A stretch of DNA of 64,000 nt from Picochlorum sp. SENEW3 (Eukaryota). The position numbers and the translations under genes are program-made. A model generated the notes under the pieces. It saw nothing but the letters and a program-made list of their open reading frames with translations. It did no database searches and was not told the DNA's origin. Positions 4,233 to 59,170 of this stretch are shown here, piece after piece. Numbering within the stretch: position 1 is the first letter of the stretch; every line of letters begins with the position of its first letter. The stretch spans positions 186,001-250,000 of the forward strand of contig CP120454.1 of the NCBI GenBank assembly GCA_034226945.1, given 5' to 3'.

Positions 4233-5074
4233 TTATTTAATGATTGCAAGCCATCCAATGACTGTATACAGAAGACCCAAAGGGTATATCGCTAACGCTC
4301 TTCTATTCTCTGGGACTGCTCCTCCGACGAATGGAACGCTGGCCCATGATGCCCACATGACTGCCAACGGCATGACAATCCATCTCACGATGGGGTTTCG
4401 GACAAACAGAAATAGAATCGCGGCTACGTTTAAAGGAAACAAGCAGTATCCTAATAGGCATAGGGATTGGAAAAATCCAATCGTTCCACCCAAGAGGACA
4501 ACATTGACTGTCAAGACCAGAGCCCCAATTGACAGCAACCCAAACACAAGCTGCAATAATAATACCAGTATAGTAGTAGATTATGGTTTTATTTCCTTTC
4601 ATTGTTTTGAAACACAACAACAACAACAACAACAACAACAACACAGATAGATAGCGTACCGAGAATGTACTAGATGGCTTGGCTGCCCCAATAGACAAGG
4701 GAATAGCAAGTCCCAAGGTGAAAATCATAGGACCCCAGAGGTCCCAGTTCCTCAGAGCTGCACTCTGTTGACTACGGTCTTCTATAGGGAACACCACCAT
4801 GACTAAATTCTTATATATACGGATCAAATCTCGCCGTATTGTTTCAGCAATGGGTTCATCTAATGTATTCGTGGGTATCATTCGTGACATGTCGTCATCT
4901 GGCGCCGTTGGGAGGCCTTGGCCTTCATTGGATCCAAACATCTACAGAAAAATAGCCATAGTTCATTCTTATTAGGATAGCCATGGCTATCTGATACAAA
5001 CCCACCTGGTCAGTTGCTGCTGTTGTTGTTGTATTTGATGAACCAAACGTGTTTTGAAAGAATGCGGATGCCAT
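4233..5074 (-). CDS. YIP1-domain Golgi membrane protein (YIPF6-like)
   Basis: NTLDEPIAETIRRDL, LRNWDLWGP, FFQSLCLLGYCLFPL and RRALAIYP. Introns 4942-5005 and 4551-4659. Confidence 0.9.
4615..4642. repeat. (CAA)n microsatellite
   Basis: About 9 tandem CAA units inside the second YIP1 intron. Confidence 0.9.
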
Positions 5075-5112
5075 TTTTTTATTACAGTTTTTTTAAATAT
5101 TTCATTATTATT

Positions 5113-6669
5113 TTATTGCGGTGGGCCACCGTTGGGTGCTGCTGAATTTGAACCAAACAATGCTGCAATGTTGACTGGCTGACCTGGACGAACACCAGGA
5201 ATCTGCTGCTGCTGCTGTTGCTGTTGTTGTTGTGGCATCATACCTGGTGAAAATCCTGGTGGAGGTGGTCGCATCATCATCATGTTTGGTGGTGGAGGCA
5301 TCATGTGCGGTGGTGGCATGCCCGGGTGTCCGGGAGGAGGCATTGGCATGCTGTACTGGGCCATGGGTGGTCTCATGGGCATGCCTCCTGCTGTTCCTGG
5401 CGACTGAGGAGGAGGCGGCATTCCCATCATCATGGGCATTCCTCTCCCTTGCTGCTGTTGTTGCTGTTGATATGGTTGTTGCTGATATCCTGGTGGTGGT
5501 GCTTGTTGAGGCCTCTGCTGCTGCTGATGATGATGGAGCATTGCCAATAAATTCTTTGCCTGCTGCTGAGATGATGATGCTGATGATGCAGGTGGCTCTC
5601 CATTCAACCGAGCTTGTCTCATTTGCGCAGCAAGAAGCATGGCTTGCTGATCGCTAGTACTACCTGTTTGAGTTGGATTCATTCCCTGTCCTGGTGGTGC
5701 TGCACTGCCACCGGCACCAAAGAGCTGCGCCAAATTCACAGGCTGTCCTTTTGGTGCACTTGTTGATGCTGATACATGTTGTTGTTGTTGCTCATGACCT
5801 CGGCGCTGATACCCTGCTTCTGCTTCCGCCCGATCATGTTCCTCCTGTTCTCTCTTCCACATCTCAATCTCATCATTCTGTACCTCCTCCACCTCTCCCG
5901 ACTCCTCCTTCTTCTTCTCCTTCCTCCACGCTGCTTGCATCTTTTGCCTCTCCGCCTCAATCGCATCCGCAGTAATCTGAATCTTCTGATTGGGATTCAA
6001 TGTTGCCCACTCTGGAGTCTTCTCATCATCATCGTGCGCCCTCTGCGCCATAATATTCGCATCATTCCACGCATACCGAGGAGTAGGCACATCACCATCA
6101 TCAGACTTTCTCCTCCACGACTCTTCCTCTTCCATCTTCACCCATCTCGATGTACCCCCTCCTCGAGTACCATGCTTCCCAGATGGAGACGTCACTCCAC
6201 CCTTTCCGCCACCATACTGCACAGACTTCTTCCCAGCATCCCATCGATCTGCCATAGGCGTCACAACTCGAGGTATCGTCCCATTTCCACTACTACTCGT
6301 CGCCTCGTCGTGAATCAATCGACTCCGCAACGGAGGGCGGGGCTGCCCCGTCACACCCACCGCACCAGTATCAAAAAATGACGCTTCAGTCAACGCTCTA
6401 CACATTGTCGATATTCAGTAAAACACATCCGAACAGCGCATTGCACGCAACGCATCGCTATCGCACCTCAAAACATCCACGTCCAAGTCTTTGGGAAGTT
6501 TCTTCGTCGCAGGGAGATGTCGAAATCCTAATAACGCCTCTCTGTACATCAGTGAATAGTATATAGTAATATGTATCAAAATCACGCGCATAAAAGTAAA
6601 CCCAGGCCAGAAAAAACAAAGAAACGTGGTGATCCCAACGCACCTGGTGTATCGAATCTTCTCCGGCAT
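5113..6669 (-). CDS. Putative eIF4E-binding, Gln/Pro-rich disordered protein (4E-T/GIGYF-like)
   Basis: Three exons with phase-2 introns 6542-6643 and 6398-6466. The spliced N-terminus MPEKIRYTREALLGFR contains YxxxxL-phi. Internal acidic-PEW motif and Q/P/M-rich C-terminus. Confidence 0.6.
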
Positions 6670-6946
6670 GCTTATTCGCTTGTATACTGTAATTGGTGTG
6701 CTACTACTGTTTAATTGTATATTTATAGTATCTAATGGAGTAGTGCAGAGGCCTTTTATCCAAACCAATACCACACCAAGGAAATAAAAACGGTCGTCGT
6801 CTACTCTACTATCGTACTCACGGTCGTTGGACTCTTTTGACCGAAGACTACTGCCATCATGGCTCCGAGACCATGATGGCAGAATTTCAAGATGCATCGT
6901 CTACTATACAGAGCTCATTCACATATTAGTAGTAGTGTAGTGTGAG

Positions 6947-8044
6947 ATGTCAGCAAACGTATCAGTAGCAGGTGGCAGGATTGGGAGTTTCAACCCCAGG
7001 GGGGGACCCATTCGTCGGTCACAAAACATTTGGTGTTCAAGCGGATCATTGTCTCAATCTATGGATGGTATGATGAGACAGAGTAGTGGTATATCTGATG
7101 GATATCTGGTGGATACGTATGGATCAGAGAGGGTGCGTGGAAGGGGAAAGGGATACGGAAGGCGGGTGCTCAGCACTCGCTGCCAGGCTGCTTCTTCGAC
7201 GCAGCAGCCAGCTATTTTGGTGAATAGTTGCACAGGAAAGATGGGTCATGCGACTGCCGAAGCTGTTGTTCGGGCTGGGTTGACATTGATTCCGTATACG
7301 TTTACTGGGAGATCAGAGGCTGTTGCTGTAGGGAATGTGGGTGTGTGTGGGGTTCCTGTGGAGCTCATCACAGCACAAGAGAGGCAGGTTGCGTTGGACA
7401 AGATCAAGGCGGATTATCCTGATCTTGTGGTGATTGACTATACGCTTCCTTCGGCGGTGAATGAGAATGCTTTGTTTTACTGTGAGAATGGGATTCCATT
7501 TGTCATGGGGACGACGGGGGGTGACAGGGACAAGTTGCTTGAGGATGTTGCAGCGTCGGGTGTGTATGCTGTTATCGCACCGAATATGGGGAAGCAGATT
7601 GTAGCGTTTCAGACGATGATGGAGTCTATGGCAGAGGAATTCCCAGGGTGTTTCCAAGGGTATAGTTTGCGTGTTGTCGAGTCTCATCAGAGAACAAAGG
7701 CCGACACATCTGGTACAGCCAAAGCTGTGGTACAGTCATTTCAAAAGATGGGATTAAGCGACTTTAAGGAGAGTGATATCGAGAAAGTACGCGAGAAGGA
7801 GGCTCAGATGTTTGATATGGGTGTCCCAGAGGAGTGTATTGATGGGCATGCATTCCACACGTATACATTAACGTCTGAGGATGGATCGGTAACTCTTGAA
7901 TTCAAACATAATGTTTGTGGTAGAAAGGTGTATGCAGAAGGGACGGTGGATGCTGCGATATTTTTACATCAACAGCGACAAAAGGGAGCTGCTACAAAAT
8001 TGTACAATATGATTGATGTGTTGAAGGCAGGTGCCATGAGGTGA
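6947..8044 (+). CDS. dapB: 4-hydroxy-tetrahydrodipicolinate reductase, chloroplastic
   Basis: VNSCTGKMG, FVMGTTGG, ESHQRTKADTSGTA and HNVCGRKVYAEG; transit-peptide-like N-terminus. Confidence 0.95.
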   Translation: MSANVSVAGGRIGSFNPRGGPIRRSQNIWCSSGSLSQSMDGMMRQSSGISDGYLVDTYGSERVRGRGKGYGRRVLSTRCQAASSTQQPAILVNSCTGKMGHATAEAVVRAGLTLIPYTFTGRSEAVAVGNVGVCGVPVELITAQERQVALDKIKADYPDLVVIDYTLPSAVNENALFYCENGIPFVMGTTGGDRDKLLEDVAASGVYAVIAPNMGKQIVAFQTMMESMAEEFPGCFQGYSLRVVESHQRTKADTSGTAKAVVQSFQKMGLSDFKESDIEKVREKEAQMFDMGVPEECIDGHAFHTYTLTSEDGSVTLEFKHNVCGRKVYAEGTVDAAIFLHQQRQKGAATKLYNMIDVLKAGAMR

Positions 8045-11109: not shown

Positions 11110-13551
11110 TTAAATATCGAGTTCGTCAAATTGGTACTCTTTACCATGGGCTTCGATCAACTCTCGACGAGGCCCCACCTTGTCTCCCATGAGCAAGGTT
11201 AGCATGTGGGATGCTTCTGCGGCATCATCCACGGTCAGTCGCTTTAGCATTCTGCTATCAGGATCCATTGTTGTGCTCCATAGTTGATCTGGCATCATTT
11301 CACCCAGACCCTTGAACCTTTGAATGCTGTACGAGTCTGGAGGCAAGTCTTTGGTGGCACGCTCAAGTTCTTCTTCACTGTTGCAGTATTTTGTCACCTT
11401 TTTTGCACCAGAGCCGAGTTCTAGGCGATATAATGGTGGCATGCCGACGAATATGTGTCCATTTTCGAATAGTTTGCGTTGATATCGGAACAAGAATGTG
11501 AGGAGGAGGGTTCGGATGTGGGCTCCATCGACATCTGCATCTGTCAGGATGATGATCTTTCCATATCTGAGGCTGTCCAAATCCTCTCCTTTTAGTCCCA
11601 GTCCGAGGCCGACGATGAGGCTGCTGATCTCATTATTTTTGTACAGCTTGGCGTCATCATGCCTTTCGGCGTTCAATATTTTACCCCTGAGGGGTAAAAT
11701 GGCTTGAAACCTTCTGTCACGTGCCTGCTTGGCAGACCCACCAGCAGAGTCTCCTTCGACAAGGAAAATTTCGCATTCATCCTTGAGGGAGGACGAGCAA
11801 TCAGCAAGTTTTCCTGGTAATGTGCTTTTGGTCAGAACGGACTTGCGTCGCACGAGATCTCGAGCTTTCTTGGCAGCTTCAGCAGCCTTGTATGCTTGGA
11901 GTGCTTTGCTCAGAACGGCATTTAAAATATTTGACTGCTCCTCGAGTGCCTCTGTGACGCATGTACTCACAGCATTATCCACAATTTTTCTAACTTCTGG
12001 GTTACCGAGGCGAGTCTTTGTTTGGCCTTCGAATTCGGGAGATGGAACTTTGACAGAGACAACTGCACCAAGGCCTTCTCTGATATGGTCTCCAGAAAGA
12101 TTGGGATCATTGTCTTTGAGAGCTTTTGTTTTTCTCCCGAGTGAATTGACGGTACGTGTCAAAGCACTCTTGAAACCATCCATATGAGTTCCTCCATCGA
12201 TGGTTTTAATGGAATTCACAAACCCAATGAGGGTGTCACTAAAGGCATCAGAGCACCACTGCAGGGATACATCTACTTGAATATCTCCGTCTGTGCGGGA
12301 GAAGAATATTGGTTCGTGTGCGCTGATACGATCTCTATTGATATGCTTGACGTATTCTGACAAGCCTCCTGAAAAGTGAAATAGTTCCCATCCATCAGCA
12401 TCCCCTGGGGTGATGGTTGCCAGTGCCTCCTCAGCATCAGACTCTGGTTCTTCAACAGCAGATGCTGCATCCTTTTTAGAGTCCTTTCTTGCGTGCTGTT
12501 TCCCAGAGTAATTTTTTGCTCGGAAATGAATGGTCGCTTGTGGATTTAAAAACGCCAATTCTCGAAGCCTAGAACGAATAGTCTCTGGATCAAATGTTGC
12601 CGTAGAGGAGAATATTGAATCATCATACAGAAACCTGACTCTCGTCCCTTTCCTATCTCCATCATCGTGCGTATCGCTCATCTCTAATTGAGAAGCAGCT
12701 TCTCCCTGGGCAAAGTTTTGATCGTATCGCTTTCCATCGCGCCACACTGTCACATGCATTTTCCTGGACAAGGCATTCACCACAGACACACCCACTCCAT
12801 GCAACCCCCCTGACACTGCATACCCACTGGAATCTCCACCAAACTTTCCTCCCGCATGCAACACAGTCAACACTGTCTCTAATGCAGATTTTCCGGTAAC
12901 TGGATGAATATCCGTGGGGATGCCACGCCCATTATCCCGAATCATAATCCAGTTTGTCTCCATATCCATTTCCACCCACACGGTATCTGCATGCCCTGCC
13001 TGCACCTCATCAATCGCATTATCCAGAATTTCGTAAATCAGATGATGAAGCCCACGTTGACCTGTACTTCCAATATACATGCCTGGCCTCTTTCTCACAG
13101 GATCCAATCCCTGCAATACTTGAATTTGTGTTGCATCATAGGCATCGCTTGCAAAACCTCGCCCATCAATCTGCTCCATTGACTGCATCGTCGTCACCGT
13201 CGATCGAATACCTTGTCCATACACGACGGAACGATAGGGATTCTCTGTAGCACCAAATACAACGCCCCCCATGGCTCCTGACTTTGCAACACAACCGCCC
13301 CTGCTATTCCTCCTCCAATTTTCACCATCGACGGCGCTGGAGTGCACCCGCATGCAATAACTACTACCACCATGATCATTATATCTATGGCTTTTCATCC
13401 GTATGTCCCTCCTCCACAATGATGGTGGTAATGCCATGCCTTGTACTCTACTCCAAGTTCGCCGAAGCATCCCTTCCCTTTGATTGCGTATTGACAATAT
13501 ACTACCTTTTGCCTTTTCTGATACTGTGTTGGCGCAATGGTCGAGAAGCAT
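11110..13551 (-). CDS. gyrB: DNA gyrase subunit B, organellar
   Basis: [66 protein letters not shown] and QRFKGLGEM. Long targeting extension; first in-frame ATG is at 13551, true start uncertain. Confidence 0.97.
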
Positions 13552-13895
13552 GCCTATACGAGCAGAAAAAGAAACTAGTTCTCTACCTTTAAAAATTGAT
13601 TGGAATGCAGTCAAAATTGACAAATACTGATGCCGATGTGCTCGTAAGAAACCATTTCAATTTTTCAATTGCACCATGTGTGTGCTTGCATGCAAGTATG
13701 TGGTTGATGGGGCCGATCCTTGGGATTTCCGAATTCGGCCTCTTCTTTTTTTCGAAAGGATGGAAACGATGGCACATCTCGCCTGGAGACAAACAAGCGA
13801 TCCGACAAGACTGACACGCGCAATACGATTACTATAAATACAAGTAACGTATTTCATGGGATTAGTAGTAGCAGTAGACGTGGGTGCGACGTAGG

Positions 13896-23802: not shown

Positions 23803-24178
23803 CCGTGTAACACGTACTTCCCTGTACATTGCCGCAGACACCCTGTACATTGTCTCTCACCTCGGGACAACAACGGCACTTGCCAGCGCCGGTCAGACAG
23901 AATTTGACCGTTCAACGGTCGAGCGTCAGACACGTGAAAAAATATACAACCACCACCGCATCGCTCCCCCGATGTATATCAAATTATTTCATTTTATTTC
24001 ATATACCAAGCATAGAACGAGTGAGGTATTGTTTTGAGCACGAGAGACGCTTTTTGTTTTTCAAGCAGAACTTGAGTTGAGGCTGGTTTGCCGCCAAGCG
24101 TGTTTACCTCATCACTGCTTTCCCTCTTGATTGTACTATATAGTATCCATCGCTTGAACTACTAATAATACAACAAAG

Positions 24179-25049
24179 ATGTTCGCTGTTGCGTTGCTCT
24201 GCAATCTGGCGTTGCTCTGTCTTGGTCTATTTCCAACCACTGTACAGTCACATGGATTTCTCCATGCCCCAAAGTCTCGTAATTTCATCGCCTCGAGCGC
24301 TGGGAACTTTTGTCCTCATTGCTTGAATGGAGGTACTGTTGAACGAGTATCTCAATCTGGATCACTTCAGTGGCCTCAGGGGGAGCATGGTATGTGTGGG
24401 GATGCAAAAATGGATACGGTGCCACGGGCTCATGAAGCAGGAGGAAAGTTTTATACACCTGCCACATATGAGACATTTGAGCAAGGACAAGTGATGAACA
24501 TCAATATTACCGTGACAACGAATCATAATGGACGGTTTGCCTTCCGAATTTGTCGAGTCGGTGGGGGGTATGATGATGCCCAGAAGAGAGAGGAGGCAGA
24601 GCTGACCGAGGACTGTCTGAACCAGAATGTGCTGAAACAAGCCAACGTTCAAGGAGCTCAAAACCCCGGTGAGAAATGGTTCTATACAACGCCTGGAGAC
24701 CCCATGTATACTGAATATTCGTTATGGTATGACCTCCCCAAAGATTTGACCTGTGATGGTGTCTCCAGCCACTGCGTTATGCAGTGGCAATGGGTCACCA
24801 TGAACAGCTGCGTGCCCAAAGATTCTCCAAAACAGTATAGGAGACCAATAGGTCTTCGATATTGTGAAGATGAAGGATCCCCATATCCAGAGGTATGTTG
24901 ATGATGATTGTCCTTGTGTTTTTGATGATGGCTTTTTTTTCTAATCCTTCTTCTTCTTCTTCTTTCTGTAGGAATTCTGGAACTGTGCTGACATCGTTAT
25001 CAAACCCACGCAAGGACAATATTCTCGCAAATTGAAAATGCTGCATTGA
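24179..25049 (+). CDS. Secreted lytic polysaccharide monooxygenase-like protein (AA10/AA15-type), copy 1
   Basis: Signal peptide ending VQS followed by His1 (HGFLHAPKSRN), CGD, second His in TTNHNGRFAFRIC, MQWQW, and YPE|EFWNCADI across intron 24893-24971. Confidence 0.88.
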
Positions 25050-25135
25050 TCATACAATGCTCTTTTCATTTTGACATGCACAAGCAATGTCAACAAGTGT
25101 AGAGAGAAGTCTCATGCCCAAGTATACTACACTAC

Positions 25136-25181
25136 ATAATAATAATAATAATAATTCCTTTGCCATAAATAATAATAATAA
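25136..25181. repeat. Two (AAT)n tracts
   Basis: AAT runs between the two LPMO-like genes. Confidence 0.8.
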
Positions 25182-25446
25182 TTTCCTAACAATAATGAAT
25201 TTGATTGTATCTTCCACACCTGTTTGATCCACCTAGTTTTGATTTGAATAGAATGTGGTGCACTCTCATGAGATCATGCAGTTGGTCAACGCTCTGCCAA
25301 GCCAAAAATCTTGACGGTTGACCAGATTGCAAGTTGCAACGGCGGTTGCGGCAAAGTCGACATTCCGAGCACGCTCATCATCCGACACAGGTAAACAAAC
25401 CTTATTATTAATGTTTTTACATACATGGAGTGAAAAAAGTATTGGA

Positions 25447-26550
25447 ATGTTTATATCTCGTACTCTTGAAACTACGAATGCGGTGTCGATTGCTGTGTTG
25501 GTCGTGGTCTTGGCGGTTCAGCTATTCGTCTTACCGGTACATGGCCACGGATACCTCAAATCACCTCCTGCACGGAATGTATTGGCAAACAGTGATTACT
25601 GTCCTCACTGCCTGAATGGTGGTACGGTATCTGCTGTGTCTGCAGGAGGAACTCTTCAGTGGCCTTTGGGACAGCATGGAATCTGTGGTGACCCATATAA
25701 TGCCCCAAAACCTCGCGATCACGAGGTGGGTGGCACGTTTTATGGCACTGGAGCACCAGTGATGACGTATGAGGAAGGATCTGTGATTCGCCTCGAAGTC
25801 ACTGTGACAACAAACCATAATGGACGGTTTATGTTTTCCATTTGTAAAGTCAATGGAGCAACGCCTCAGGATGAAGCAGCACAATTGACTCAAGACTGCT
25901 TGAATGAACATGTTTTGGTGCAAGCCAATGTTCCAGGAGCTCAAAAACCTGGGGAGCAATGGTTCTATACGACCCCAGGAGACCCCATGTATAATGAGTA
26001 CACTATGTACTATCAACTCCCCGACCTCCTGACATGTGATGGGGTGGACTCTCGATGCATTCTGCAGTTTTATTGGGTCAGCGGAAACTCCTGTAATCCT
26101 CCGAATACACCAGAGAAATACAAGAGGCCGTTTGGGTTGCCAGACTGTGGGTCTCCTGGAGCTGCGTATCCGGAGGAGTTTTGGAATTGTGCCGATATCA
26201 AGATTGTATCAAAATCATGGAAATCCTTCTATCCAGAGACCATTGGAGGGATGGAAAAACAGGTCAGATCATCATTGCTACCTTCATATGCCAAGGGCAT
26301 CAAGGATAAGACGATGCATGAACAGGCGGCAGCGACATTGTTCTGTACCACCAAAGTGAATGCCTATGGCATGTTCCCTGATGCTGACAAGAACTGCCGA
26401 GGGTACTTCATCTGCCAGGAATTGGCAAGTTGGTATGTCAACTGCCCATCTGGGATGAGATTTGATGCAGAGACACTCGTATGCCAGTATAACGAGCGCG
26501 CCATCTGTATTGATCTGAGATATCAATCAGGCACAGATGTGCCGTATTGA
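25447..26550 (+). CDS. Secreted LPMO-like protein with C-terminal CBM14 chitin-binding domain, copy 2
   Basis: Signal peptide VHG|HGYLKSPPARN, TTNHNGRF and EEFWNCADI. Six-Cys module C...FPD..NCRGYFIC...CPSGMRFD...C...C. Confidence 0.88.
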   Translation: MFISRTLETTNAVSIAVLVVVLAVQLFVLPVHGHGYLKSPPARNVLANSDYCPHCLNGGTVSAVSAGGTLQWPLGQHGICGDPYNAPKPRDHEVGGTFYGTGAPVMTYEEGSVIRLEVTVTTNHNGRFMFSICKVNGATPQDEAAQLTQDCLNEHVLVQANVPGAQKPGEQWFYTTPGDPMYNEYTMYYQLPDLLTCDGVDSRCILQFYWVSGNSCNPPNTPEKYKRPFGLPDCGSPGAAYPEEFWNCADIKIVSKSWKSFYPETIGGMEKQVRSSLLPSYAKGIKDKTMHEQAAATLFCTTKVNAYGMFPDADKNCRGYFICQELASWYVNCPSGMRFDAETLVCQYNERAICIDLRYQSGTDVPY

Positions 26551-56844: not shown

Positions 56845-58695
56845 TTACATGAAAGGAGTAAATGGAATGGCTCCTGCACTCAGGGTTCTTGGCATATCTG
56901 GATAAATTCCGTTGAGTTTCAAACCTGCACAAAGCCCAATGATGTCATCGGTTGCAGTGGAATGATCTCCGGAGAATAAATATGATCCACGGGCGAGTGC
57001 AAACCCTCTGGTTCCATCTGGGCCCCGTGGCATCCTGGATGGTTTGGTCTGCTGGTTGACTTTTGATGCTCGCAAGTGGAGATGCTGAAGCTTTGATGGA
57101 AGTTTGGTATCAGCCTCTGACGTGGCGTTGGTACCAGACTTTTCCTTTGTTCTGATACGGCACGCAATTGGTTCTGAACCATTCTTTTGATGCAACGTGA
57201 AGTAGACGACATCTCCGACATCCACAGGGTCCTTGGGTGAGAGATCAGACTTGTGGAAGTAGAGGCGCTGCTGTGGGCTCCTCTTTGCTGTGTGATCACT
57301 CGTCTCTTCGGAAGACGAGGGAATGATTCCATTCCATGTGAGAAAGCCGAATCCCTTTGGACCTTTGGCACTGTCTTTGATACTGACAATTGTACCTACA
57401 GATTTGACTGGATGGACTTGTACTGCTCTTCTGGCAATGAGGTTTGCAACCAGTCCTTTTCCTGACATGTGCGCCGAGACCATGGCATTCACATCAGTTA
57501 ATATTTTAAAAGTGATATGATCCCCGACTCGTAACGCAGAAATGCCGTCACTTTCACTGGCATGGAAGAGAATCTTCATCTTGGGGGTGGTACTCCATGC
57601 TTTACTGTCAAACCTGTTCTGTTTCTTTAGATTCAAAGGCTTTTCAATAAAGTCAATGACTCCAGGAGACTTTGACATGTTTGGTTTTCCAACAACGACG
57701 CCATGATACTCACATTCACTCACAGTCTCAAATGTAACGGATCCAGGAGGAGCTCTGGTGACATGACATGCACATGGTCGTCCATCCTTGTCCTTCTTTA
57801 CGACAAACTTCAAATCGTCCCCAACCTGGAGTTTTTCTGGATCCTTATCAACCTCTGAGAAGTGGAAGAAGAGGTCCGATGAATGTCCTAGCCTTTTGAT
57901 GAATCCAAACTCCTTTTTCAGGAGAATAACTTTACCCATTTGAGGATCCTCATGCACACGTGCCTCTGCCTTCTCCGCCGCGTCGAGCGCAACCTTATCA
58001 ACCTTGACATCGTATGCTATGTATATTTTTGTCGTTGTCTGCTGCGCCAAATTGAACTGCACAGGGTGACCAATCTGCAGTGGTGTGTCGCTCTCAGACA
58101 CTCGACAAGTCCCAAAGAAGGCTTGCTGCTGGCAACCTTCCTGATCGATAAAACTGATCATCCCATCATCGACCTGGGCATCTGTAGATACATTTGAGGG
58201 TAATGAATAGACAGTTCCAGTATATACCCCATCAATCGTCACCTCCTTGGGCCTTGGCTCTGCGCTCCTGATGGTGACAATATTCTTTGCAACTGCTTTT
58301 GTGCCAGGCTCAGTGCTCTGTTCCAGCGTGAATCGAACCAATGAACCACCATGACACTTTTTATCAGTATCTTTCACATGGAAATACACACGAGACTCCA
58401 ACTCGGGAGATTTAATGAATCCAAATCCGCCATGACGAACAGCCACAATGCCAGTGTACATCACCTCTCCAGAAGCACTATCGTCTGCAACCCCCTGCTC
58501 CCCATTCGCCTCATCCTTCTTCTTCTTTTTCCTCTTCTTCTTCTTTTCAAGTGCATCTGCATTATTGTCATCGGCACATTGCTCCTCGAGAAGAAGCGTT
58601 TCCGAGCTTCCCTTCTTGAGCTCTGTCAAGGCGTCCTCTTCCGCAGACAAGATCTTTCTTCCCTCAACAAGTCCTTCCGCTTCCAATACCGTCAT
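56845..58695 (-). CDS. Multi-cold-shock-domain RNA-binding protein (UNR/CSDE1-like)
   Basis: Three canonical CSDs (FGFIK..VYFH, FGFIK..LFFH, FGFL..LYFH) alternate with degenerate ones. C-terminal RMPRGPDGTRGF and TLSAGAIPFTP. Confidence 0.8.
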   Translation of the reverse strand: MTVLEAEGLVEGRKILSAEEDALTELKKGSSETLLLEEQCADDNNADALEKKKKRKKKKKDEANGEQGVADDSASGEVMYTGIVAVRHGGFGFIKSPELESRVYFHVKDTDKKCHGGSLVRFTLEQSTEPGTKAVAKNIVTIRSAEPRPKEVTIDGVYTGTVYSLPSNVSTDAQVDDGMISFIDQEGCQQQAFFGTCRVSESDTPLQIGHPVQFNLAQQTTTKIYIAYDVKVDKVALDAAEKAEARVHEDPQMGKVILLKKEFGFIKRLGHSSDLFFHFSEVDKDPEKLQVGDDLKFVVKKDKDGRPCACHVTRAPPGSVTFETVSECEYHGVVVGKPNMSKSPGVIDFIEKPLNLKKQNRFDSKAWSTTPKMKILFHASESDGISALRVGDHITFKILTDVNAMVSAHMSGKGLVANLIARRAVQVHPVKSVGTIVSIKDSAKGPKGFGFLTWNGIIPSSSEETSDHTAKRSPQQRLYFHKSDLSPKDPVDVGDVVYFTLHQKNGSEPIACRIRTKEKSGTNATSEADTKLPSKLQHLHLRASKVNQQTKPSRMPRGPDGTRGFALARGSYLFSGDHSTATDDIIGLCAGLKLNGIYPDMPRTLSAGAIPFTPFM

Positions 58696-59170
58696 TTCAG
58701 GTATAATGTATCCTATTCACTCACCAAAACTGCCCTAACGTCTTCGTTCGAGCGAAACACTGAATCGTCTTTCAAATCAAGAGCCTCCGCCGTTGCGTAC
58801 AGAGACGTGCTTCTTTCAATACAGAATACAGTATGATTGTACCAGATATATCTTTATACAACCAGCAGTGAAAAGAAACGACCGCGACACGCGCCGACCT
58901 GGTGAAAGCAGATTTTCGCTGACTCGTCGCTCCAGCGCCGAGAGAGAGAAAAGATGCTCAGTTGCACGTCTTGGGGAACAAACACCGTGTGTGATTGCTC
59001 CCAAATGAATTTCAAAGACGACGGGGTGAGCAGCTGCTGTCTGGACTTGTATTCCGTGCATGCAAGAGCACTCGGGGGCGCCATTGGGATTGTCCCAAAG
59101 GACACCTGTCCCACTTGTCTTGGAAAACCAATTGCTCGGACGGGAAATATCGGTTTTACAAACGCATTCA

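Follow-up and report, generated by a model that had tools for sequence, protein, structure and literature searches.

A Predicted eIF4E-Binding Protein with 4E-T-Like Downstream Motifs in Picochlorum and Other Chlorellales

Introduction

Several eIF4E ligands, among them eIF4G, the 4E-BPs, p20 and Eap1p, are described as binding eIF4E in a bipartite manner, through one canonical element and another that is non-canonical, and as sharing no homology outside the canonical motif (PMC6061780). In 4E-T and GIGYF a PEW motif is reported to occupy the W pocket of DDX6, while the FDF pocket of DDX6 is bound by an IEL sequence in 4E-T and by a split FDx4F motif in GIGYF (PMC6771390). For plants, the available accounts state that no functional homologue of the animal and yeast 4E-BPs has been characterised so far, and the known eIF4E partners EXA1, CBE1 and CERES are described there as land-plant proteins (PMC11062462, 10.1101/2023.02.16.528822). 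[quoted passage not shown] A full-text search of the literature on eIF4E-binding YXXXXL motifs in algae gave general papers on evolution, none of them on such a protein. Here we describe a gene of the green alga Picochlorum sp. SENEW3 located on the minus strand at positions 5113-6669 of a 64,000-nucleotide (nt) stretch of contig CP120454.1, referred to as the window, whose numbering is used throughout, and we compare its product with these systems.

On balance, we favour the reading that this gene codes for an expressed, Chlorellales-restricted, disordered protein predicted to bind eIF4E, whose downstream motifs suggest an adaptor role like that of 4E-T or CBE1. A preliminary description of the window, made from its letters alone, had proposed at this place a hidden translational repressor of the 4E-T/GIGYF type, with an eIF4E-binding motif split by an intron.

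Gene Structure, Splicing and Annotation

The gene is composed of three exons (Table 1), and its joined coding sequence of 1386 nt is in frame and encodes a product of 461 amino acids (aa) that starts MPEKIRYTREALLGFRHLPATKK (the same start is also recorded as MPEKIRYTREALLGFRHLPATKKLPKDLDVDVLRALTEASFFDTG). Contigs of four public runs (X1, X5, X6 and X15) were aligned to positions 5000-6900. The label "RNA?" carried by X1 and X6 is a guess only, but X1 can be recognised as spliced RNA because in another of its contigs the downstream gene is without its 64-nt intron (5006 is joined to 4941). X1 (study P1) and X6 (study P3) each contain a contig from which intron 2 is absent; in it, 6397 is followed directly by 6467, and the 69 nt skipped have the ends CT..AC on the plus strand. 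Past position 6544, the same two contigs carry 16 (X1) and 13 (X6) further letters that find a unique placement in exon 1, at 6647-6662 and 6647-6659, respectively, and the 102 nt of intron 1 have therefore been removed; the cut has a 3-nt ambiguity (CAG) and is equivalent to 6643/6542. Splicing of both introns is thus confirmed in RNA contigs from two studies, exactly at the junctions (6643/6542 and 6466/6398) that the preliminary description had predicted. The other two runs are uninformative on splicing: X5, which is probably DNA, is continuous through intron 1, and the coverage of X15, an oligo-dT metatranscriptome, is limited to parts of exon 3.

At the 5' side the RNA contigs reach 6662, short of the transcription start, and the reading frame upstream of the ATG at 6669 is open to 6900, with one additional in-frame ATG. 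The end of intron 1 (6545-6552, minus strand) reads ATG TAC AG in frame with exon 2, so that an unspliced or intron-retaining RNA could start 'MYREALLGF', with a mis-spaced motif, and exactly this start occurs in the unspliced open reading frame (ORF) as well as in P0004, the uncurated model of a relative that is 82% identical. It was ruled out as the main product, since the RNA contigs correspond to the spliced form.

The gene turned out not to be hidden, as had been supposed, because two public annotation sets of Picochlorum already contain the same spliced model. Identity of the exon-3 product is 99% to the Picochlorum protein Picre1 27983 (eukprot) and 98% to M9435_003073 (NCBI; Picochlorum sp. 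BPE23), and both models have the identical spliced N-terminus, MPEKIRYTREALL, and are named "hypothetical protein". The models P0002 and P0003 share the N-terminus of the exon 1 product. Annotation pipelines model the gene correctly yet give it no name.

The N-Terminal Motif and Its Linker

Once the introns are removed, a canonical YxxxxL-phi motif, YTREALL, is encoded across the junction of exons 1 and 2 and stands close to the N-terminus, as the preliminary description had proposed. Its extended form is KIRYTREALLGFR (residues 4-16), and KIRYTREALL fits all positions of the stricter 4E-BP pattern [HRKQ]xxYx[RH]x[FAVLIM]L[MLWFY] given in 10.1101/2023.02.16.528822. When the protein was shuffled 20,000 times, 5.1% of the shuffles contained YxxxxL-phi at any position, 0.29% had it among residues 1-30, and 0.11% had the extended form Yx(R/K)xxL-phi-xx(R/K/Q).

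The motif is kept in 10 of the 13 models or loci that reach the linker block behind it, nine of them with the full canonical form, and the family consensus is Y-(S/T)-R-(E/D)-x-L-(L/K). These ten are P0002, P0003 and eight relatives: P0016 (LRYSREELLALR), P0030 (IRYSREELLALR), P0031 (KYSREELLGLR), P0032 (RYTREELLALR), P0036 (TYTREELLALQ), P0023 (SYSREELLAVK), P0018 (RYSRDFLKAFK) and the metagenomic locus L002 (RRYTRETLLSFR), in which the motif lies in a single unsplit exon after MSETMAQGVGQ. In two further models an exon or contig boundary falls inside the motif (P0004, RETLLGF; P0005, LSF), the thirteenth, the uncurated ORF call P0017, has no Tyr, and all other stored models, which start downstream or in intron-derived sequence, were left out of the scoring. 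This conservation is independent of the search profile, because the profile used to recover the relatives (A2, 237 positions) starts beyond the N-terminal exons, and yet the motif is present at the N-terminus of relatives that were found by way of the core.

Behind the motif there is a linker and a hydrophobic element: a structure prediction (AF2, run on alignment A1) places one short helix at residues 9-17, over the canonical motif, and another at residues 30-42, which belongs to the conserved block LPxxLxxD(D/V)Lx(D/A)LxE(S/A)xFFD (in short, LPxxLxxDDLxDLxExxFFD). By analogy with the bipartite binding mode described in PMC6061780, this second helix may touch eIF4E at its lateral surface. The conserved FFD at the end of the block could be part of such a non-canonical element or, alternatively, a mimic of the FFD box of LSM14, which binds EDC4/VCS.

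Comparison of residues 1-51 with 177,635 distinct PDB sequences gave three matches at E ≤ 10, two of which are eIF4E-bound human eIF4G1 (5t46_B, E 0.33) and 4E-BP1 (4ued_B, E 1.3). Both alignments extend beyond the motif into the linker and, since no single match is significant, they are treated as a consistent lead. A TOR phosphosite in the linker, suggested by the 4E-BP1 alignment, was ruled out because the Thr varies across the family. In feature searches of the ESM Atlas, each of the two family members used as query brought up a 4E-T cluster, 88% of whose members carry PF10477 (scores 0.77 and 0.87), as well as a cluster in which 13% of the members carry Eap1 (0.83 and 0.85); all of these scores fall below the bar of 0.9 and are therefore leads only. 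Neither an eIF4E nor a DDX6 gene was found among the 35 ORFs of the window that were scanned.

Conserved Blocks Downstream of the Linker

The chain is predicted to be mostly disordered (mean pLDDT 45.3, pTM 0.19), with further short helices at residues 177-200, 205-234 and 311-331, the last one containing LLAML, and in both LFG boxes. Residues 171-230 are the best-modelled part, with a pLDDT of 62-80 in six of seven ten-residue blocks and of 51 in block 201-210. The PEW motif, AKNLLAML, the two LFG motifs and the P/Q-rich tail all lie where the preliminary description had placed them; in the tail (residues 301-461), Pro accounts for 24.8%, Gln for 20.5% and Met for 12.4% of the residues.

From the N- to the C-terminus, the conserved blocks of the family are the N-terminal motif with its linker, (I/L/V)(H/R)SRL(I/V), DRWD, SRWVK..E(E/D)(S/D)WR, PRYxW, PEWA, (M/I)TAxD(I/M)EAERQ(R/K)MQAxW(R/K)K, DDEIExWKxEQEE, GQxV(D/N)xxxLFG, LLAML and a second GQQ(V/I)NxAALFG. 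Alignment A3 has 14 invariant columns, five of which are Trp. The Trp of PEW and the Ala that follows it are invariant in all 13 sequences of A3; the exact tripeptide is present in ten, the others having PDW, ADW or PVW. LLAML, too, is kept in 10 of the 13, two others having LLNML or LLSML and the last being a truncated model. LLAML and the LFG motifs are, like the N-terminal motif and the PEW Trp, conserved features of the family within the Chlorellales. When the conserved-core profile was compared with PDB sequences, only coiled-coil-like chance matches were obtained (best E 0.14).

In the distant relatives P0014 and P0015, a Tyr stands ahead of the SRLI block and gives RYQFSRLI, a second YxxxxL-phi-like site that is absent from the Picochlorum protein. 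The sequence LNPNQK, which follows PEW, was considered as a PAM2-like motif and ruled out: it has no counterpart of the Phe that PAM2 requires, and the Chlorellaceae members do not retain NPN.

Table 1. Exons, introns and protein motifs of the Picochlorum gene; positions are those of the window and residues those of the spliced product.
Feature	Residues	Position	Strand	Remarks
Exon 1		6644..6669	-	26 nt; ATG at 6669; encodes MPEKIRYT plus bases 1 and 2 of codon R9
Intron 1		6542..6643	-	102 nt, GT..AG; interrupts the predicted eIF4E-binding motif after YT-R(2/3)
Exon 2		6467..6541	-	75 nt; (R)EALLGFRHLPATKKLPKDLDVDVL; contig pieces 6467-6544 in X1 and X6
Intron 2		6398..6466	-	69 nt, GT..AG
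Exon 3		5113..6397	-	1285 nt; TAA at 5113-5115; RNA contigs over most of the exon
Canonical eIF4E-binding motif YTREALL (predicted ligand)	7-13	6651-6644 and 6541-6529	-	split by intron 1 within codon R9
Candidate non-canonical (lateral-surface) eIF4E-binding helix, VDVLRALTEASFF	30-42	6373..6480	-	spans intron 2; predicted helix
Trp/Arg-rich motifs, SRWVKMEEEESWRR and PRYAW	117-130 and 140-144	6067..6150	-	invariant R/W columns in A1, A2 and A3
PEW	162-164	6007..6015	-	directly after DDDEKT; Trp invariant in A3
Two predicted helices	177-200 and 205-234	5797..5970	-	(I/M)EAERQ(K/R)MQAxW(R/K)K and DDEIExWKxEQEE; invariant E, E, R, M and W columns
First GQxV(N/D)xxxLFG motif, GQPVNLAQLFG	251-261	5716..5748	-	
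AKNLLAML, helical leucine-rich-like motif	314-321	5536..5559	-	inside predicted helix 311-331
Second GQxVNxAALFG motif, GQPVNIAALFG	439-449	5152..5184	-	near the C-terminus, after the P/Q/M-rich tract

Family Distribution

Pfam-A scans (hmmscan; P0001, P0002, P0005 and P0007), which covered three relatives as well as the exon-3 product and the upstream frame in its unspliced form, gave no family at E ≤ 10. A search of 1.84 billion representative proteins with the A2 core profile recovered 18 proteins at E ≤ 0.001, of which 10 reach E ≤ 1e-10 and 6 reach E ≤ 1e-30. The A3 profile gave 13 matches at E ≤ 0.1 among 8000 scored candidates, the weakest being an RRM/PABP-type protein (E 2.6e-3) that is probably a low-complexity match. 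Four of the ten relatives looked up have a named source, Micractinium conductrix, Nannochloris/Chlorella desiccata, Parachlorella kessleri and Prototheca wickerhamii, and further sources named by the A3 search are Micractinium tetrahymenae, Chlorella sorokiniana (in a fused model) and Chlorella variabilis (in a chimeric one). All named sources are Chlorellales algae, and all the proteins are called "hypothetical" or are mis-fusions. Land-plant, animal and fungal proteins are missing from both the 18 A2 and the 13 A3 matches, and no longer or fused relative of 819-2335 aa was found at E ≤ 10 among 4701 scored candidates, so far as these searches reach, the family being found only in Chlorellales green algae. 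Synteny is kept in the metagenomic relative L002 (about 40% identical), whose gene lies between a DapB-type gene and a gene for a Yip-like membrane protein, the same neighbours that flank the Picochlorum gene.

Comparison with Known eIF4E-Binding Proteins

The helix-linker-helix layout of the algal protein matches the bipartite mode described for eIF4G, the 4E-BPs, p20 and Eap1p and, as reported for yeast p20, the motif is found at the extreme N-terminus (PMC6061780). The likeness to eIF4G1 and 4E-BP1 consists of the local alignments that run into the linker, yet these are non-significant and the remainder of the algal protein is unrelated to either. Unlike the 4E-BPs, it has no conserved Ser/Thr-Pro phosphosites evident in the linker across the family, and the eIF_4EBP family gave no Pfam match at E ≤ 10, the only trace of it being the local, non-significant alignment to 4E-BP1.

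The eIF4E-binding sequence of 4E-T is of the Y-(T/S)-(K/R)-E-x-L-L type, and that of GIGYF has the form YxYxxxxL-phi; the algal protein has no Tyr two residues before its motif Tyr. With metazoan 4E-T (EIF4ENIF1) and Drosophila Cup it shares an N-terminal canonical YxxxxL-phi motif and a long disordered chain and, as described for these proteins, a PEW Trp motif about 150 residues downstream of the eIF4E-binding motif (PMC6771390). GIGYF1/2 and plant EXA1 are also described as combining an N-terminal motif for 4E-family proteins with PEW(A) (PMC6771390), and the pairing of a 4E-binding motif with a DDX6-binding PEW in 4E-T and GIGYF, on which the preliminary description had relied, agrees with the same source.

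The G(K/Q)xLLAML sequence resembles the helical leucine-rich motifs (HLMs) of Dcp2 and DCP1 and the M1 motif of URT1 in being short, leucine-rich and predicted as a helix within a disordered region. HLM-type motifs bind the LSm domains of EDC3 and LSM14 (PMC3877753), and the LSm domain of Arabidopsis DCP5 is bound by the URT1 M1 motif (PMC7910438), so that binding of LLAML to an LSm domain may be envisaged. Within the green lineage, land-plant CBE1 is the closest described protein, with an N-terminal canonical site and no known domains; the two were compared by description, and CBE1 is not among the matches of either family profile search.

Proposed Mechanism and Alternative Explanations

If the favoured reading is correct, the protein would dock on eIF4E or a paralogue in two parts, with the YTREALL helix (residues 7-13) on eIF4E's dorsal surface and the linker and second amphipathic helix (residues 30-42) on its lateral surface, in competition with eIF4G. 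The Trp/Arg boxes, PEW, the helical pair, LLAML, the LFG boxes and the P/Q/M-rich tail would then recruit or concentrate factors of mRNA repression and decay, the candidate partners being a DDX6 homologue at PEW and an LSm domain of the LSM14/DCP5 type at LLAML. The protein would thus be a functional analogue of 4E-T or of CBE1-type adaptors and would act in the direction of repression, with putative links to DDX6 and decapping and a possible place in P-bodies.

Several observations weigh against this reading. Neither FDF, FDx4F nor IEL follows PEW in the window protein or in A3, no Phe is found within about 70 residues after PEW in the window protein, so that the FDx4F second half of a DDX6-binding motif is absent, and A3 has no conserved Phe column after PEW; about 16 residues after PEW, (I/M)E(A/E) stands where 4E-T has IEL. 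Searched against the PDB, the PEW region found neither a 4E-T nor a GIGYF chain, but only SUZ12, SusD and GST, which are chance matches. EIF4E-T (PF10477), eIF_4EBP and GYF domains were not found by Pfam even at E ≤ 10, which sets the protein apart from 4E-T, from the GYF-containing GIGYF and EXA1 and from the 4E-BPs, and its relatives are confined to the Chlorellales. The PDB matches of the N-terminal region are individually non-significant, and the best of the three is an unrelated enzyme (E 0.27), while an ESM Atlas score below 0.9 is attained by shuffled proteins in a third of cases. P0018 has Lys at the phi position, and in P0017 the place of Y-x-R-x-x-L-x-x-F is taken by PARSPLACF, the Tyr being absent if this uncurated ORF call is correct. 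Nothing found points to repression over activation. Because no match to the family models of 4E-T and GIGYF was found, the resemblance to both is one of motif architecture, and the best reading is that of an analogue of these proteins, not a detectable homologue. Of the 4E-T/GIGYF-like character given to the gene by the preliminary description, the layout of short motifs was borne out, and family membership was not.

The irregular motifs of P0017 and P0018 also speak for a different explanation, in which the N-terminal motif would be no eIF4E ligand and the protein would be a disordered, P/Q-rich scaffold that acts elsewhere, for example in the nucleus or in condensates, and binds unrelated partners through its Trp/Arg boxes and helices. 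The lack of a family-level match to any eIF4E-binding protein fits this idea, as does the frequency with which YxxxxL-phi arises somewhere in the shuffled protein; the position of the motif, its extended consensus and the linker block that follows it are, on the other hand, kept across relatives recovered via the core alone, and we consider this explanation rather unlikely. It is unlikely, too, that the gene is a fast-evolving chlorophyte orthologue of CBE1, and hence a member of a known family. CBE1 has the same general layout, an N-terminal canonical site together with a link to P-bodies, in the accounts given of it (PMC11062462, PMC10432800), and the top row of the Atlas search by structure is a Streptophyta cluster of 982-aa hypothetical proteins, with a TM of 0.16 that is meaningless for a disordered chain. 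Orthology would nevertheless have to be reconciled with profile matches whose named sources are all Chlorellales, without any land plant, and with the lack of a match among the proteins of 819-2335 aa.

The direction of action could also be other than that proposed, since, among the eIF4E ligands matched in the PDB, the eIF4E-binding region of eIF4G1 gives the best alignment to motif and linker, and the plant eIF4E-binding protein CERES is reported to be able to promote translation (PMC11062462). The algal protein would in that case bind eIF4E in a positive or neutral role, as a substitute for eIF4G like CERES, as an eIF4E chaperone or as a transport factor. Pfam found in it no MIF4G, LRR or other domain that recruits eIF4A or eIF3 (E ≤ 10), and motifs of the PEW and LLAML types are known from adaptors of repression and decay, which makes such a role quite improbable. 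The favoured reading, a disordered eIF4E-binding adaptor, can also be carried further, to a convergently evolved, Chlorellales-specific analogue of 4E-T that would be the first P-body or translational-repression adaptor recognised in green algae, a proposal that is conceivable as a whole but doubtful. Under this extended proposal, the bipartite motif at the N-terminus would hold eIF4E or nCBP, the Trp of PEW would fill, with no FDF partner, the W pocket of the algal DDX6 homologue, the LSm domain of DCP5/LSM14 would be contacted by LLAML, and the five invariant Trp in charged boxes would serve as GW182-like W-motifs for CCR4-NOT.

Neighbouring Genes and Other Features of the Window

Downstream of the gene, also on the minus strand (4306-5112), lies a gene for a Yip-like membrane protein without a Pfam match, which has its ATG near 5073 and thus starts about 40 nt past the TAA. 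Its 64-nt intron (5005-4942) is spliced out in an X1 RNA contig and, because this contig extends over the 3' end of the gene for the predicted eIF4E-binding protein as well, the transcripts of the two genes either overlap or were merged by the assembler. On the other side, a divergent intergenic region of about 390 bp (6670-7063), which is probably a shared bidirectional promoter, separates the gene from one for a plant-type dihydrodipicolinate reductase (ORF 6941-8041, plus strand) with DapB_N and DapB_C domains.

Elsewhere in the window, two adjacent LPMO_10 ORFs (24158-26547, plus strand) encode AA10-type lytic polysaccharide mono-oxygenases, one of them with a chitin-binding Peritrophin-A domain, which is unusual in a green alga. 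A full-length DNA gyrase B ORF (11113-13656, minus strand), with HATPase_c, DNA_gyraseB, Toprim and C-terminal domains, is presumably a nuclear gene for an organellar gyrase. Cold-shock domains of CSDE1/UNR type are encoded in a large ORF (56848-58716, minus strand) that is unlinked to the gene at 5113-6669 and may bear on the same pathway, UNR being a partner of 4E-T in animals.

Significance

The gene looks like an uncharacterised candidate regulator of translation, belonging to a conserved, expressed and compact algal family that has an eIF4G/4E-BP-like docking region together with 4E-T-like downstream motifs. Tyr7, Leu12/Leu13 and Trp164 (Y7, L12/L13 and W164) give concrete targets for mutation in a candidate factor of cap-dependent translational control and mRNA storage, in Chlorellales that, like Picochlorum and Chlorella, grow fast and are genetically tractable. 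If the extended proposal of a convergent 4E-T analogue holds, the PEW-DDX6 interface would either be much older than the opisthokonts or have arisen twice.

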